Shown piece after piece: positions 9,001 to 33,456 of a DNA stretch of 64,000 bases. A program made the position numbers and the translations under genes. The first letter of the stretch is position 1, and every line of letters starts with the position of its first letter. Source of the DNA: Yuukianura sp. NJ FZ-2021 (Eukaryota); contig CM102286.1 of assembly GCA_046563655.1 (NCBI GenBank), forward strand, positions 5,890,001 through 5,954,000, read 5' to 3'. The notes under the pieces were generated by a model. The model worked only from the letters and a program-made list of their open reading frames with translations, was not told the DNA's origin and did no database searches.

Positions 9001-11751
9001 AACTCTTTTTTGACAAAATTCTTCAAGTAAATTTTGAGTAACGTGACATTTTGACAGCATCAGAACGTATTCTAGCGTGGGGTAAATCATTATGCTTACT
9101 AAAAAAATGAAACAAACCTTAACGTTTTTGAACATAAAAAATGAAAATGGTTAACAATGTATTTGGAACCATAATGGAACCAAAAGAATTTTTTTCAACT
9201 AGTTCGAACAGAAATTCCCTTAAAAAGGGTTTCAAGGGCCCCCATATGTACCGGGTATTTTGCTCAGCATTCGATTAGGTTAGACTGAAGCGGGACTTTT
9301 GAACCAGCTTCGATTGTTTAACGCATGAGGTGAAGGACGCCTGACGACATACTGTCACGGTCACCATTCGGCAAAGGGCAAAGGCACGGGTGAAATCCGA
9401 TAAAAAATGATGCCCGATACCCGTTTGTTCAGAGGATCTGTAAGTAGTTTGGGTTTCGACATTAGAAGTATTGTATTGAATCGAGCAGGAAGCACCTTTG
9501 GGGCCCTTTCGACATCCTCGCTAAGGCTCCCCGTTTCCAAACCCCTTTTTTAGAAAAGTAGAATTGAGCAAGGAGCCCTTAACAATGTAGACTTCTGTCC
9601 CATTTCAATTTTTTGTGGCAAATACTTTTGTTTGATTGAATTGAGCATGGATGATGGTGGGGCACGTGGTAAAACGTTGAAAGTATAGCTGCTGGATGGG
9701 GTTATGCTTTCTTCGATATTTTAAGCATGGCAACTGCACTCTTCTGGCCATTCCGGTTAAGTTAGGTTAGCTCCCGTCAAAACCCGAAAAATATTATTGA
9801 ATTTGTTTTGATTTTGTGCTTACTTGGTTGCAGTGCAGCATGCATACTTGCAAAAGGCATTGAAATGGAAGTTGGTTTGGAAAAACTGGACTAGGCAAGG
9901 TCTGAACCGGCCGGCTTCCAAAAAGTTCCTCCCTCATCAACATCATTCCTTTCAAACTGAATCAATAGTTTCAATATGAACAACAAAAATTTCATTTTGA
10001 TCAGGCAACTCGTTTTCTATTTTAAAACCAGTCTACTATAGGCAAGACACAGCCTACAAATATTTGTTAGGATCATTTTTTAATTCAAGTTTATTCAATT
10101 CAAACTAGACTTGAGCTAAACTTAACCCTCTCCGGAAGGTTCTAGAACAAAGTTGCTGTCGTTAAAGTGAACACAACAATTTGTTTCTTTCAAAATTAAA
10201 GGATTTTAAATCTGAATATCTGAAATTTGAACTCTGATTCAATTTCAAAAAAAAATTCTGATTCAAACTTTTGACTTTGACTCATGGGAATTTCATATGT
10301 CTCTCATGACTAACATTTTCAATGTTGCCAAAAACGTTTCGTGCCAAACGAAATAACGGAACGGATTTTAAAATGTGTTGAACTAAAATTTTGATTCATT
10401 TCCAAAGGGTTAAAGCTTTCGAAAAAAAATTTCAAAGTGATCAAAAAGTTCAGACTCACTAATCCAAGTTCCATGACCTATCAAAATCCTGTTGTCTTTA
10501 AAACTAAACTGCAGTTCTAAGCAACAAACAAACTGAAATGACACGCTCATGCTATATTTCTTCTAAGAATTTTATGTAATCATCAGTGTGAATTGTGATG
10601 ATTCGTTTTTTTCCTTAGTCAGGCAAAAATTTCCTTTTCACTGCTCATACAAAACCTTCAATGTTCAACATTTTTAGTTTGTTTTGTGACGAGTTTTGAG
10701 AAATGCAATTTGGGGGCGGCGCATGATTCAACAATGTATTTCAACTCAGAGAGAGATAAGGACTCATAGTTACAGGATTTTTGGCTGCTGTTATAGAAGT
10801 GGGTGGTTGATTGGATCAAAGGTTAACAATGACATATTAAATTCAGGGATGAGCTCCAAATGGAAACTACTAAGCTGATTTCCCTCCACTCCGCTTTAAG
10901 TTTCGTCATCAAAATTTTGTTCCCAGGCTTAAATTGAACGGTAGGAAGAGGCAGGAGGCTCAGTAGCCACCTCGCGTTTCGAACTTTAGGTTTTGGTGAG
11001 CAAGTCGAGCCAAAGTTTTAGTGTAGATTTTGAGTTGCCAGGAGAAAGTTGTTCTCTCTCTCCGGCTTTTTCAGTTCTTGTGCTTTTCGATCCTAATCTA
11101 ACTTAAACCTAACCCGAACCATAAGTTAGGTTGAAATGTCGACATGGAGGCATCTTGTGGATTCAAAGTTCCCAGTCCCCGAGGATCTCTGTAGCGTAAG
11201 TATTAAGCTGGGGTTGTGTCTTAAATCTTGGAAATGATAAGGAGGGGGTGTAGTTGGGGCGTTCTGGTTAGCTTTAAGTGGTTGCTTACGAAAAAAGAAG
11301 GCGGTATTATCCAAAGTACGGATTCGAGCCTGTTCTTTTTTCAAAAAAACGTTTGAGTTCGACTGGTGGTGGTGACTAATCGAGTGAGGTTCCACGTAGT
11401 TCGTGGACCGACTCTTGAGTCAGTCGAGGAGATCAACATCAGATTAAGTTTCTAACTCTTTTTTGGTTTTCTTTGCAGGTTCATTCTTGAACAAGGAGTA
11501 ATCCCTTCTTTTGGAAGATTTGAACAAAGGGGAGCCCTTAAGTGGCTGCGTGCCAACTGCCAAGGACCTCAACCCGTTCTTTTCATACTCAAGACGGACC
11601 TGCTCCTTGAAGACCCAACATTTACATTTGAATCAAATTAGAAGTAATCTTCCGACCGACCCGGGAGAATCAAAGATTTCAAAATTCAGCGCCAAGAGTT
11701 CTGAGCTTCGAAACTCAATCAAAACCGAAAACTGTTCAAACTTGAAAACTT

Positions 11752-11826
11752 TTAACTGAAACCCGTAAAACTGACCATGCGTAGCGTTTATCTGTTCGCA
11801 TGTTGAGTGGGACGGGTCCAAGTTAA
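11752..11826 (+). ncRNA. mir-100: pre-miR-100 (divergent), let-7 complex member; mature 5p ~11760-11781 AACCCGUAAAACUGACCAUGCG
   Basis: First 8 nt are identical to canonical miR-100 (AACCCGUA), 16/22 overall. The sequence folds back (ACCCGU/ACGGGU, CAUGCG/CGCAUG, basal UUAACU/AGUUAA). It lies ~330 nt upstream of let-7, the conserved position. Confidence 0.85.
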
Positions 11827-12084
11827 GGGTTACAATCAACAAAGTTTCAACTGAAGAAAACACCGATTTCAACACACAGAACGTGCAATACTGCTTCGAG
11901 AAACTTAGAAATTGTAGTTTACCTAACTTGAAGCAATTTGTAATTTGTGATGTTTTACTTTATGAATCCATTTGTAATCAATTTGAAAGTTGATGTAATT
12001 TAAGTTTGAATTTGGTTTTGTATGTGTAGTGTATAGGAGCGTGACGGAAGAAAGTCGCGATTATGCCGGGACGTGCCATGGCGG

Positions 12085-12175
12085 TCTCTGTGTGAGGTAG
12101 TGGGTTGTATAGTTGAGAACGACATCACTTTAGACAAGGACGAAACTGTACAACTTGCTAACTTTCTTAGAGTCT
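12085..12175 (+). ncRNA. let-7: pre-let-7; mature 5p 12093-12114 UGAGGUAGUGGGUUGUAUAGUU, star arm ~12146-12167 CUGUACAACUUGCUAACUUUCU
   Basis: 21/22 identity to canonical let-7 (A10G). The complementary arm resembles the arthropod let-7-3p, with a ~31-nt loop. Confidence 0.97.
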
Positions 12176-13806
12176 CGTCACTAAGAACGTCTACAAGCAT
12201 AAGACTCGTAGATTGGTCACTTAGGTATTATTCCAAAAACATTTTTTGGATTTTAATAGTCATAGTTAAGTTTAGGATTGAGTTTGGTTTTGGTTTAACT
12301 TAATCAACTAAAAAGAAATCTCACTGAAAGACTGATTTTTAAAACAATGTTAGGTTAGTGTAATTCATAATTAGCAAGCAATGAAAGGAAAGGTGCGAAA
12401 ACTTACGTAAGTTTTGTGAATAGTAGAGTGAAGCTGTTTCGAAAACAGTTTGATGGCATGGTCTGAAACGGTGTGAAAAGCTGCGTGTGAATAAAAAGAA
12501 TTTTTTTTTTTTTAGAAAATCGAGAAATCCGTTAGTTTTGTTTTTAAATGAAGCTGAGTTGAAAGAGATGAACTGCATAAACTCCGAGCAAAAGAATCTC
12601 CCAATTCCCAGTGTCACAGATTTCAACACATCAAAATCATCCATGCTTAATATTTAATATATGAATTTTTATTTTTGAAGCAAATGTTTCTGACAAGTGT
12701 CTTTTTAATGTTTCGATTTTTAAATTGTAAAAGATTTGTAACGCTGGCATTTCAATGAGTGTAAGATTACTAAGATTTCATAGGGAATATTACAATTAAA
12801 TCCAGTCATCATAGTCCATAGAAGTTCCGGAATTTCGACTGATGCGTTTTTGAACTGAAAAAAACTCGCGGTAAGTTTGAGATTTCGGACGTTTGACATT
12901 GACTGACTGCTATGCATACAAAGGCATCTAGTAAGGGATATCATACTTTGCACGGAGTTTGTTTCAGGAGAGACGGGTATTATGAATTTTGAGAGCTGAT
13001 TTGAAATGGGCTGACAAGACAAAGAAGCCACTGAAATTATCCTGCTCAAGATTAGAACGGAGCTTAACAATTGGGAGGTTAAGTTTATTGTAGAATAAAA
13101 ATCGAGTAGATTCAGCACTTGCATGAGGAGTCTCTGCGGTCGCTATCGTTACATAATCTTGGACTGGATATAGAACCGTACAATAGAGGGATGCTAGATC
13201 CCAACACCCGCTCTGCCTACAACTGGCTCCCTAAGCTTCTTTTTAGCAAACAGTTTCGCACTGGAGTCTAGTTTTGGCAATATTAAGTGGCAGCCTTTAC
13301 TCGCCCAACTTAACCTTTCCTATCTTTATCAAAGTCAAGAAAGCCAACCAACTTCTGCCAAAAGTTGTGCAGTGAGTCTGAGTGGTTGCGAAGGAGGGAA
13401 CTGACCAAAAAGAAGAGAAAGGACTTCGGATTTTTCAATTTCATTCAACCGGCAACCACCACCAACTTACCACCCGAATTCAGATTCCACTTGTCTCGGC
13501 ATAAACTCTGGACACTGGTCAAAGGTCTTCAACGGTACGTTGACAACTTCTTTTCAATACTCGTACTAAATTGACAACGGCTCTAAGGTAGTCCAAGCTG
13601 GACTAACACGTTTTGTGGAACGACATCTTTAGACTTTAGAGTGTGAGAAACCAAGTTTCTCAGTTTCGAAATTCATACGAAGTCCAAAATTCAAATTAAA
13701 TTCAAAACTATTCTTTATTCCTAAATAACCGTTCAAATTAATGAAAAAATTAAAAAAAAAAAAGAAGATTCTGTTTAATTATTATGAAAACTCTGTAACG
13801 TATAAG

Positions 13807-13857
13807 AATTCGAAATTTGTAGAAAGTGTAAGTTACACTTTCTACAAATTTCGAATT
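13807..13857. repeat. Perfect palindrome, 25-bp arms, 1-nt spacer
   Basis: aattcgaaatttgtagaaagtgtaa-g-ttacactttctacaaatttcgaatt. Confidence 0.95.
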
Positions 13858-14067
13858 TTTTCCGTTAACTTACACTGTGTAACGTAAAAGAGAAAATTTC
13901 CTGTCAGTTAAACTTGTTTTTTTTACTCCTCGTGAACTTACATGAGAAATTTCTTTTTTAAACATTGAAGAAATTTTTTTCAAGTGAACCTGTTGAAGTT
14001 TACACTGGCTTTTGTTAAAAATTTCAGGAGAATGACAACATCCCGGGTCACACGAGTCACATTACTT

Positions 14068-14160
14068 TTTCCACCAAGGTTCCAATCCCTGAGACCTAGA
14101 AATATATGAATGTGAATTTGAAAACGTCATAGATTTTTGTCTCAGGACTGGACGGTGGAA
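14068..14160 (+). ncRNA. mir-125: pre-miR-125 (divergent); mature 5p from 14086 UCCCUGAGACCUAGAAAUAUAUGA
   Basis: First 11 nt are identical to miR-125/lin-4 (UCCCUGAGACC). Hairpin pairs CCUGAGAC/GUCUCAGG and UAUGA/UCAUA, with basal UUCCACC/GGUGGAA. Third position in the miR-100/let-7/miR-125 order. Confidence 0.88.
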
Positions 14161-14328
14161 AACTTTCTCCAGGAAACACTTCCAAATGTGAGGTCAGATT
14201 TTTAATTTTGATGAGTTTAATTAAAGGAGTTTTAATTAAAAGCTTAAGGAATTTAGTATAATTAAGTTGTGGAGAGCAACATAAAAATTCTAAATGTAAG
14301 GCAGTTCCTCTCCGGAAAAGAGGTTAGT

Positions 14329-14371
14329 AATTAGAATTCCCAAAAGTGTCACACCTTTGGAAATTCTAATT
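14329..14371. repeat. Near-perfect palindrome, 21-bp arms (2 mismatches), 1-nt spacer
   Basis: aattagaattcccaaaagtgt-c-acacctttggaaattctaatt. Confidence 0.85.
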
Positions 14372-22509: not shown

Positions 22510-25349
22510 ATGCGGGTAAGATAAGTTCAGTATTTCAAGTGGAAAGGAACTTAAGAGGCGGAGCTATTGTAAATTCGTTTGTAAAAATTGTAAGACATGC
22601 TTGAAAAAATTAACGTTGTAACTCTCTTTTGTACAAAAAATTTTTTTAGAAACGACGTGCATGGATTTTCTGTTCAAGGGGACTCAACTACACTTACATT
22701 TTAAAAGTGACGTTCATCCTAAGTGCTTTTGCTAACCAATGTTTTTCGAATACACCTTCTGAGGAGCAAGATCATTCGGATGAATCAGCACAACTATGGA
22801 GCAAAAGTCGAGTTTTTCGACTTTACGTGAGCTCAAATACTACTGACGCTAAATCAAAATATGAAGCTGGGATTGAAACATTGGAACCTAATTTGAAAAA
22901 GCTCGAACCAAAGAAAAGATTTGAACCGAATTTGGAAAAATACGAACCGAAAGTGGCAGAACCTGATCCGAGTTTAGAAAAATCATTAAGCACTTTTGAG
23001 GAAGACGATGAGCAAGAGTCCTTTGAAAACATATCCACAGAACGTCAATTTCCATTAAAAAGAAGTTGGGTTAGTGGTCGCTTAACTGCGAAGAGTTCAC
23101 CCGCCGGAAGTGAAAGTAATGTGAAGTTGGGTGTCCTCAAAACTCCTGCACCATTTATTTTACCTGCAGCATATTTACACAACGACGCTTTGTATGGTCA
23201 AGTCCAACCAAAGGTCAAAGGTCACAAGACAAAACAAAAAATTTCAAAACGCAGAAAACAAACAACGCCACAGCCTATACAGCAGCATTTCCAAGCTGTA
23301 AGTTCCATCAAAGAGCGCATACCGAACACTTCCGAGCAAAATTCAAATGTTTCTTTAAAAGCAACATTTCATCCAGCAGATACAGAAGAATTGAGTTCAA
23401 TTGAATTGGAACTTTCCATTAACGGAAAAGGAGCTTCTGAAAATTCTAAAACTCAAATTCAAATTGCAAATCCTCAGAGTCAATGTCTTCAAATTTCGGA
23501 ATCCAAAAGGAAGCGAACTCTGCTGAATGTTTGGTCTTATGGAAAAGGAAGAATCAAATTGGAGAGTCAACGAGAAGTGCCTTCATCAATTCTTAATGGA
23601 AGCGCGGCCGTGGATGGCGAATTGCTCAACCGTGCCGAAATTCCACAGTCCGTGGCAAATGAATTGAGTGCCCTACTAAACGGGATTGGCAGGAGTGATA
23701 ACCGCAGTGTTTTTGCTAATGTTCATCTACCGGCTTCGGGTGAAAGCCTATTTGGAGGAAACCGCCGTCCTAACCTAATTATGCTCCATTATATTTTGTG
23801 GGGTGAACAAGAAAAAGCTTGGCGCCGAATGCTTGATACAACTGTAGAAAACTATTTACGCAATTATTTTGTCACTACGTTTGGACGAAGAAAATCTCGC
23901 AACTTTCCTCCAAGTATGTTGACAATTTAGTATGATATACTTTATATTTTTGGCTACCAAAAAATTACGAAAAAATTACCAACAAACTCACTATATTTTC
24001 CGGCATCTGATTTTAAAAATTCTTGCTTGGAATGTAAAATTGAAATCCTCTATTTTTCAGAGAAAATCAACTGGCGAAAAATGAGAAACGTTCTTCTAAG
24101 TTTCATGGCGTCTCCGGAGGTCAACTGTAGCAGAGGTCAAGAACTTGCTTTAAGCGATTATCCCAAAGAAGAATTTATCTTGCCGCATCGTTTTCAACAG
24201 GTCACCACTGCGCAACCGCTTAGCGACTTTCACCCTCTTCGTTCAAAACCGAATTTACCCGTAAGCGATGGTAGTCCAATCACGCGCCACGATGGCATAG
24301 GGTACGGATGGCAGCAAAATGGGTGGGGAGCGCCGCAACAACAACAAGGATGGGGAGTGCCGTATCAACAGCACGGGTGGGGAGTTCAACAGATCAATTC
24401 TGGATGGGGGTGGGGTGGTGATCAAGGGGGTAAGAAAAAGAAGAAAAAGAAGAAAAGTAAGAAGAAAGGAAAGAAAAAGAAAGGCAAGAAAAAGAAAGGC
24501 AAGAAGAAGAAAAAGAAGAAAGGCGGTTATGGATGGGGCGACCCGCCTGGGTGGGGCTGGGGCCACCCACCTCAACCGCTTCTGCACCAAATTAGCTCAG
24601 GGTGGGACCAAGTACAATGGAACAGTTTCGAATTCGATCCAGCTGAAATTGCCCACAAAGGACTCGCTGTCATTGGTTTGTTTGCAATTCCGATTGCTGT
24701 ATTCGTTGGTGCTTGTGTCGTCGTTTACTTAATCACGACAAAACACAAAAGTAGTGCACCGCAATACATTCATTCCACCGTCCATCGTCCAGCACATATC
24801 TCAACTCCTCTCATCTTCCGCGACTTTCCATCGTTCGGTTGGCGTCGACGCACAGAACGACCTATGTTGCCCACTGACAAATGGAAGTCACCCGACGCTG
24901 CAAATCCGTTGCCCACAGAAGATCCTGATGAGCACCGTGATTATCCAAATTCTGGCTATGGTCCGAGAAAGAAATCTGCGTTCAGGGCAAAGTTCAACAG
25001 TGGAACGAGTTCTATCAAAACGCCACCGAAAACGTTTTCTGAAATTAAAGACTCCAGCACTGCCCGCCGAAATAAACTTTCTGATTATGACTCCTATGCA
25101 AGGCACATGCGGAAACGAGGACACAGGATGCGCGGACATGACAAAAGAGATTCCGGACATGGGCCTTACTACAATGACGAAGAATACGAAGCTAACAAGA
25201 TCCATGAAGTGTACACCCTAGGGTACATACCCACTAGAACGAAACAAGAGGAAGAACTAATCAAAATTTTAAGCAAACATAAAAAAGCACGCCTAGATGA
25301 ATTGTTACAAAAGTGGAAGCTAGACAAAACGAATAAATCATGGATGTAG
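22510..25349 (+). CDS. Uncharacterised ~850-aa probable single-pass membrane protein with GW/GWG repeats flanking a poly-Lys tract; exons 22510-22515, 22650-23913, 24061-25349
   Basis: Two long ORFs (407 and 440 aa) join in phase via CCAA|gtatgt ... ttttcag|AG. A putative ATGCGG|gtaaga micro-exon gives a signal-like N-terminus (less certain). The hydrophobic segment GLAVIGLFAIPIAVFVGACVVVYLI looks like a TM helix. Confidence 0.75.
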
Positions 25350-31253: not shown

Positions 31254-32060
31254 ATGACAGTTTTCCGCGCGGCTATATTTCTAGTCTTAACCCAAGTTCT
31301 AACTACAATCTGTGAAAATCAACAGGTAAGGAGTTAATTGCTAATGCTGACTTTAAATAATGCGGAATGGAATTAGTAAAATATAATAGGAATATAATTT
31401 TCAGAAATTTCCTGTGCAAGTATATTATGAAACTCGCTGCCGGTATTCTGTCAAGTTTTTCTCAAAGCAGCTTTGTCCAGTCTGGGATCAAATTTCCGAT
31501 GTCGTTGATGTCCAACTGTTTCCATATGGAAATGCTGTGGTAAAATAATTATTCATGAAATTTCAACTGCCTTATTGGCCAAAGCAATGACAAGGAGCTA
31601 ATTCAGCGATTTTAACATTACTTATTATTTTTTTAAGAAACAAGTCGACACCACTGGTGAGGTTTCTATCAAATGTCAACATGGAGAAAAAGAATGTCTG
31701 GGAAACATGATGCACGCTTGCGCACTCAACCTGTATCCGTATTCACAAGCAAGAAAATTTGTATGCTGCTCAATGAGTCTCAAAAGTTCAATTGCTGCTG
31801 GGGAACAGTGTGCAGAACAATTGGGATTGACCTTTGACCCAATCCAACGATGCATAGACAGCAACACAGGATTTTTGTACATGAGCGTGTATGGGAATGC
31901 AACTGACCAATTAAACCCTAAGCATACATTTGTGCCTTGGATTCTGTTCAACGGCGTTCACGATCCAGAAGATATGAATGCTGCCCAAGAAAATTTCCCA
32001 GCAGTACTTTGTAAATCACTTGGAGCAAGTGCGCGTACCGCAATTTTTTGCAGTTCTTAA
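31254..32060 (+). CDS. GILT: GILT-like lysosomal thiol reductase, copy 1 (active site CRYS, CxxS); exons 31254-31325, 31405-31539, 31638-32060
   Basis: Signal peptide, VQVYYETRCRYS, LFPYGNA, GILT signature CQHGEKECLGNMMHAC, FVPWILFNG; phase-0 GT-AG introns. Confidence 0.93.
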
Positions 32061-32552: not shown

Positions 32553-33456
32553 ATGAATTGCATCGGAGTGGCTGTACTTCTGGTTGCTTTGCAAGTCATT
32601 ATTATAAATGGCGAAAAGGTGAGTAAAGGAGTGGAATACGATGAGTCAGAGTGACGCTTTATTAGGCAGCTTTGATGGTTTGGTTGTTTCTGTTGGGTAT
32701 TGCTTATCACATTGTCTCGATTCGACTACTCGATTATTAGGTTGTTATTATTTTTTATTAAAATACTGTTTTCGCTTACAGAAATACCCGGTGCAAATAT
32801 ACTACGAAAGTTTTTGCCCAGACTGTACCACGTATATTGGGAAGCAAGTCTGCCCAACCTGGGAGAAAATGAGGGATGTCCTGGATATTCAGTTGTTTCC
32901 ATACGGAAATGCTATAGTAAGATCGATTAATACCAAGCTAAAAAAAATACAATTCTTCGTTCTTTTTACAATTTCTGCACAATTTTTGGATGTGTCTATT
33001 TAACTTCAAACTACATTTTAGACGTTCCACTCCCATGGAAATTTGACAGTTCGCTGTCAACACGGCCCAAAAGAATGCCTGGGAAACATCATCCACGCTT
33101 GCGCACTCAATCTCTACCCATTTCCCGATAGAATGCAGTTCGTCTGTTGTATGGAAAATGGCAACAAAAGTACCCTGTCGACTGCAAAGAATTGTGCAGA
33201 GAAGCTGAAATTAAAATTCGAACCAATACAAAAATGCATAAAGAGCGGCGCTGGATTCCAGTACATGGTTGATTACGGGAAAGCTACTGACAAGTTGGAC
33301 CCCCACCATAAGTTTGTGCCTTGGACTCTGTTCAACGGTACTTACGATTCTCATGACATGGACATTGCACAACAACATTTTCAAACAGTGGTCTGCAAAT
33401 ATATGGGACCGTCTCCACCTCCTCAATGCAACACAATTTTTTCAGACTATGACTAA
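32553..33456 (+). CDS. GILT: GILT-like lysosomal thiol reductase, copy 2 (active site CPDC, CxxC); exons 32553-32618, 32782-32916, 33022-33456
   Basis: Signal peptide, VQIYYESFCPDC, LFPYGNA, CQHGPKECLGNIIHAC, FVPWTLFNG; same intron positions as copy 1. Confidence 0.93.

Follow-up and report, generated by a model that had tools for sequence, protein, structure and literature searches.

The three hairpins found within 2.4 kb on the plus strand of the window (the whole 64-kb stretch of DNA analysed here), in the order miR-100-like, let-7 and miR-125-like, most probably represent a true let-7 complex from a pancrustacean arthropod. In this reading, to which we assign a probability of about 0.78, the flanking hairpins would be true orthologues of miR-100 and miR-125. 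Related loci from metagenomes keep the hairpins, display a stepwise series of forms and carry compensatory changes, and the flanking members are therefore better regarded as conserved, diverged orthologues than as products of chance or decay. A preliminary description of this DNA had already recognised three hairpins in that order on one strand, and both the reading of the letters and the folding of the two strands agree with it.

The arthropod let-7 complex, as known from let-7-C of Drosophila, unites the same three families in the same order and on the same strand, with mature products on the 5' arms. The window departs from it on several aspects: beyond the seed, its miR-100 and miR-125 arms no longer follow the consensus, its let-7 has a G at position 10, the spacing from let-7 to miR-125 reaches ~2 kb, and its transcription as one unit is a prediction. 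According to the available text of Hertel et al. 2012 (PMC3384580), arthropods have a single, compact cluster whose members are spaced by a few hundred nucleotides.

Layout and folding of the hairpins

The arm ends listed in Table 1 were deduced from the folds, as 22-nt duplexes with 2-nt overhangs. The preliminary description had placed the starts of the 5' arms at 11760, 12093 and 14086, and the sequence and the arm coordinates give the same positions. In all three hairpins, the 5' arm begins with the seed of the family, above a lower stem of at least 11 pairs, which bears out the earlier statement that the seeds are intact. The star-arm pairing CAUGCG/CGCAUG, also pointed out at that stage, is present in the computed fold.

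Table 1. Hairpins and conserved blocks of the cluster region, in window coordinates
Feature	Position	Strand	Details
miR-100-like (MIR-10 family) hairpin	11747-11831	+	inferred 5p 11760-11781, inferred 3p 11799-11820
let-7 hairpin	12079-12180	+	5p arm 12093-12114, inferred 3p arm 12146-12167
miR-125/lin-4-like hairpin	14067-14162	+	5p ~14086-14107, inferred 3p ~14128-14149
Conserved block upstream of the miR-100-like hairpin (~470 nt)	11224-11287		75% over 64 nt to L001, collinear
Conserved non-hairpin block, let-7 to miR-125-like interval	13131-13195		aligned to L001 and L022
Second conserved non-hairpin block, let-7 to miR-125-like interval	13306-13347		88% over 42 nt to L001, collinear

By minimum free energy, the miR-100-like fold (11745-11835) reaches -36.5 kcal/mol with a z-score of -5.76, and none of 200 shuffles is as stable. 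The let-7 fold (12070-12185) reaches -37.8 kcal/mol (z -2.79, 2/200 shuffles as stable) and the miR-125-like fold (14065-14170) -35.2 kcal/mol (z -4.36, 1/200). The RNAfold-type check suggested beforehand thus returned three stable hairpins. The reverse strand of let-7 has no advantage over shuffles (z +0.35). For the miR-125-like hairpin, the opposite strand reaches a comparable energy (-36.0 kcal/mol), so that it is the seed, together with the orientation of let-7, that assigns this hairpin to the plus strand.

The let-7 5p arm of the window differs from Drosophila let-7 by a single change, A to G at position 10. Its hairpin matches the full-length Rfam model RF00027 with 46.5 bits (E 1.4e-7), against a gathering score of 53.5, which is a threshold set by curators and not a biological feature. 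A literature search for the G10 variant written in DNA letters found no paper. The 22-mer carrying G10 has 0 loci in the genome-contig collection and 0 in the viral-contig collection.

On the plus strand, the miR-100-like hairpin precedes let-7 by 332 nt. Its seed word ACCCGUA occupies positions 2-8 of the 5' arm (11761-11767), the lower stem counts 11 pairs, and the arms can form a duplex of 22 nt with 2-nt overhangs. Compared with the RF00104 consensus, the mature arm has six changes, at positions 9, 11, 13, 16, 18 and 21, the same number as the 6/22 counted initially. The miR-100 8-mer at 11760 is unremarkable by itself, with 1.05 matches expected per window; its weight comes from its location, where it opens a hairpin arm that precedes let-7 in the same orientation, and from its orthologues.

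The miR-125-like hairpin is found on the same strand, 1994 nt downstream of let-7, with the miR-125/lin-4 seed word CCCUGAG at positions 2-8 of its 5' arm (14087-14093). Relative to the complement of the Triops miR-125 probe, the first 11 nt of the arm match and the remainder diverges, in agreement with the extent of similarity described before. The 11-mer at 14086 occurs once in the window, for 0.01 occurrences expected.

At gathering thresholds, Rfam returned 0 matches over the whole 64-kb window. In a 111-nt search, the miR-100-like hairpin scored 11.7 bits against mir-10 (RF00104), with an E-value of 3.7 and a cut-off of 47.5 bits, so that overall similarity to the family falls well short. 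A 121-nt search with the miR-125-like hairpin found no microRNA family up to E 10. The concern that similarity-based annotation could score miR-100 and miR-125 as lost is directly demonstrated by these scores.

Related metagenome loci and the course of divergence

Metagenome contigs provided 31 loci with the G10 22-mer of the window's let-7. In four of them (L001, L022, L028 and L014), the let-7 hairpin aligns to that of the window beyond the mature arm, with 77-89% identity over 87-114 nt. Their RF00027 scores range from 46.1 to 48.0 bits, and both let-7 arms are identical to the window's at 22/22 positions in three of the four, the 3p arm of L022 agreeing at 21/22. A UG at -14 is carried by three of the five let-7 hairpins, the window's among them.

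All four loci also harbour a hairpin with the miR-100 seed upstream of let-7, at 310 nt in L001, 256 in L022, 798 in L028 and 662 in L014. The clusters fall into two types. Type 1 (window, L001 and L022) combines a diverged miR-100 with a short spacing to let-7, and type 2 (L028 and L014) a near-canonical miR-100 with a spacing of 662-798 nt. Seven blocks, all three hairpins included, follow the same order in L001 and the window, and the flanking DNA outside these blocks does not align between the two. L001 and L028 share a record prefix, which places both cluster types in one metagenome assembly; this may reflect a sample with two species or a genome with two paralogous clusters.

The mature miR-100 arms form a graded series, with one difference from the RF00104 consensus in L028, two in L014, four in L001, five in L022 and six in the window. 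The Rfam mir-10 scores drop in parallel from L028 to the window (44.7 bits in L028, 30.4 in L014 and 11.7 in the window, L001 and L022 being unlisted at E<=0.01). L028 and L014, which align to the window hairpin, thus indirectly suggest its continuity with the mir-10 family.

Applied to the five miR-100-like hairpins, RNAalifold predicted one common hairpin of 30 pairs, six of which have both sides changed. Two of these six compensated pairs underlie changes in the window's own mature arm, UA to AU at position 18 and UA to CG at position 21. The consensus structure is paired in 94.7% of 150 pair cells across the five sequences. The covariation score of 0.230 compares with 0.115+-0.027 in shuffles, none of 500 reaching it, and controls with a slid partner arrive at 0.117 at most; the score stems from five kindred sequences, and related sequences can surpass shuffles even without structure. 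The covariation would accordingly be supportive of structural constraint, short of formal proof. A covariance model built from the five hairpins and run on the window and the 31 loci matched only its training sites and their antisense, so that neither the window nor the other 27 loci contain a further copy.

For the miR-125-like hairpin, the comparison involves two sequences, those of the window and L001, whereas miR-100-like and let-7 hairpins could be compared in five, and the sequences are not independent. The L001 hairpin has the same 11-nt start and lies 1743 nt downstream of let-7. It agrees with the window at 19/22 positions in the 5' arm, 16/22 in the 3' arm and 11/20 in the loop. One compensatory pair distinguishes the upper stems, and the lower stems differ in sequence and are paired in both. 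The end of the L001 arm is nearer to the Triops letters than that of the window, and L001 therefore resembles an intermediate form. No miR-125-like hairpin was detected in the DNA available downstream of let-7 in L028 and L014 (~2 kb each) or L022 (~0.95 kb), even with one mismatch allowed in the 9-mer.

A CNNC motif stands 17-18 nt past the inferred 3p end in all five miR-100-like and both miR-125-like hairpins, at 17 nt in the window's miR-100-like and 18 nt in its miR-125-like hairpin. CNNC at a spacing of such length is a mark of Microprocessor substrates. The preliminary description considered the locus functional with rapidly evolving 3' regions, and at the level of sequence the compensatory pairs and the conserved hairpins support that view.

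The other metagenome loci present a different picture. L004 has just 25 nt in common with the window, and 26 of the 31 loci (L002, L003, L005-L013, L015-L021, L023-L027 and L029-L031) place the let-7 G10 arm in a hairpin plainly distinct from that of the window, the available upstream DNA being devoid of the miR-100 seed. Rfam, run on nine of the 26, found let-7 alone. The change from A to G at let-7 position 10 either arose twice or predates the lineage of the window. The miR-100 seed word is encountered 1.0-1.2 kb downstream of let-7 in L015, L023 and L024, and a miR-125 seed word at +1954 in L020 is too close to the end of the locus for folding.

DNA around the cluster

Conservation extends to three blocks besides the hairpins (Table 1). 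The first block between let-7 and the miR-125-like hairpin includes a 25-nt run nearly identical in the window, L001 and L022; it has no significant fold on either strand and may belong to the primary transcript or have a regulatory role. The block upstream of the miR-100-like hairpin could be a candidate promoter or first-exon element. Additional hairpins considered at 13100-13230, 13270-13380, 11190-11320 and 9750-9850 were rejected, with fold z-scores of -1.24 to +1.11. A coding explanation of the region was likewise rejected, as the six open reading frames of 97-140 aa between 11126 and 15532 have no Pfam match above the cut-off. The nearest clear genes lie further downstream of the cluster.

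The interval from let-7 to the miR-125-like hairpin also contains, at 13804-13860, an almost perfect inverted repeat of 28 nt whose arms are separated by 1 nt. The window contains it once, a comparison with L001 found no counterpart, and Rfam gives it weak matches to several unrelated microRNA families (E 0.02-0.2). A similar inverted repeat is found at 14329-14371.

Neighbouring exons at 31602-32060 and 33022-33456 each encode one domain of GILT (lysosomal thiol reductase), suggesting two genes in tandem. A word-based search with the GILT exon gave no match, and HMMER found relatives of at most 52% identity, the named animals among those looked up being a springtail, a fly and a woodlouse. 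The ubiquitin-hydrolase exon has at most 80% identity to named proteins, with insects and one springtail ranked first. In a tree of vesicular GABA transporters, the window is placed within Pancrustacea (support 98) and outside all named groups, its sole close partner being one metagenome protein. A protein atlas added no informative taxon, and the host is accordingly placed in Pancrustacea, with no close named relative among the collections searched. A long open frame at 23931-25349 combines Gly/Trp-rich repeats, a mostly-lysine run of ~45 residues and a hydrophobic stretch, with no Pfam match.

Origin and significance of the diverged hairpins

It is rather unlikely that the window holds a diverged paralogous let-7 complex, with a more canonical cluster of the L028/L014 type elsewhere in the genome and a redundancy that allowed drift or new roles. 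Such a history would account for the two cluster types among the relatives, one with a diverged and one with a near-canonical miR-100, and the joint presence of L001 and L028 in one metagenome assembly fits two paralogues as it fits two species. Related species commonly co-occur in one sample, however, and the same rare let-7 G10 arm is found in all five loci. The type 1 hairpins are still structurally constrained, and the preliminary description's alternative of a decaying paralogue is contradicted, as regards decay, by the compensatory changes. As for the genome-wide search for a second, canonical cluster proposed with it, the part covered by the 64-kb window revealed none, Rfam having no match there and the covariance model a single site plus its antisense.

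That let-7 alone is still a working microRNA, flanked by two unprocessed relics, we regard as very improbable. Relics would explain why the flanking mature arms departed from a near-invariant consensus, but they should lose pairing, whereas nearly all pair cells are paired over the five miR-100-like sequences, and the changes in the mature arm of the window itself have compensating partners. The seeds are also intact, the arms better conserved than the loops and the CNNC spacing kept, while the flanks outside the conserved blocks have become unalignable between the window and L001. Chance hairpins with seed-like words are less credible still: the miR-100 8-mer alone would be expected about once per window, but the miR-125-like 11-mer would not, and both words start the 5' arms of hairpins with z-scores of -4.4 to -5.8, in canonical order and strand. 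Both hairpins moreover recur at matching places in related loci, and these orthologous loci in practice refute an origin by chance.

If the window holds, as we favour, a genuine let-7 complex with orthologous flanking members, it would be expressed as a single plus-strand primary transcript containing three Microprocessor substrates. The shared strand, the lack of coding signal between the hairpins and the blocks collinear with L001 are hints of one transcript for all three. Drosha/Pasha and then Dicer-1 would release ~22-nt duplexes, the 5' arms would presumably be chosen, and the products would repress the usual seed-matched heterochronic targets. In the course of the lineage, miR-100 and miR-125 would have changed stepwise in the half outside the seed, as would let-7 at position 10, and the opposite arm would have followed, with preservation of the stem. 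More tentatively, and at somewhat less than even odds, this may be the sole let-7 complex of the genome. In this pancrustacean clade, let-7 position 10 and the halves of miR-100 and miR-125 beyond the seed would then have been released, step by step, from a near-absolute bilaterian constraint, the star arm following.

Derived members of the complex have been recognised by synteny before. The available text of Hertel et al. 2012 (PMC3384580) names nematode lin-4 for mir-125, and sea urchin mir-2003 and tunicate mir-1473 for mir-100. As far as that text describes them, these cases resemble the window in that the seed and the place in the cluster are kept, the rest drifts and family models miss them. 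They belong to nematodes, echinoderms and tunicates, whereas the window is pancrustacean and has intermediates linking the derived to the near-canonical form. The window cluster, judging by its letters, is a further case of this known phenomenon. In Triops cancriformis, by contrast, the accessible part of the report (PMC4338350) describes miR-100 and miR-125 as sharing their exact sequence with a broad range of bilaterians, an identity that the window's miR-100-like and miR-125-like arms do not share.

Published losses of miR-125 deserve attention in this light. The Strigamia and Parhyale genome papers, in the portions available, state that miR-125 is absent from an otherwise present miR-100/let-7 cluster, and the corresponding portion of a millipede paper repeats this absence for Strigamia. 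As described there, homology searches found miR-100 and let-7 and no miR-125, and a default search of the window behaves alike; the window nevertheless has, unlike what these passages report, a seed-bearing hairpin downstream of let-7. The present case is not mentioned in the consulted part of the MirGeneDB 3.0 paper.

Judging by their titles, the papers of Tarver et al. 2018, on MirMachine and on MirGeneDB 3.0 bear on false losses. The cluster described here adds an arthropod case in which two of three members are present yet invisible to family models, with intermediates that show the route. It is a concrete warning, mainly for the published miR-125 'losses', that loss calls based on similarity can err, and before a member is called lost, the DNA downstream of let-7 should be examined for synteny, seed and hairpin together. 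The naturally graded forms in the related loci could also serve to ask how much non-seed sequence a microRNA requires. If the window does contain the sole complex of its genome, this would imply either seed-only targeting or co-evolving targets, and would suggest that the miR-125 'losses' of Strigamia and Parhyale may be false negatives of the same kind.
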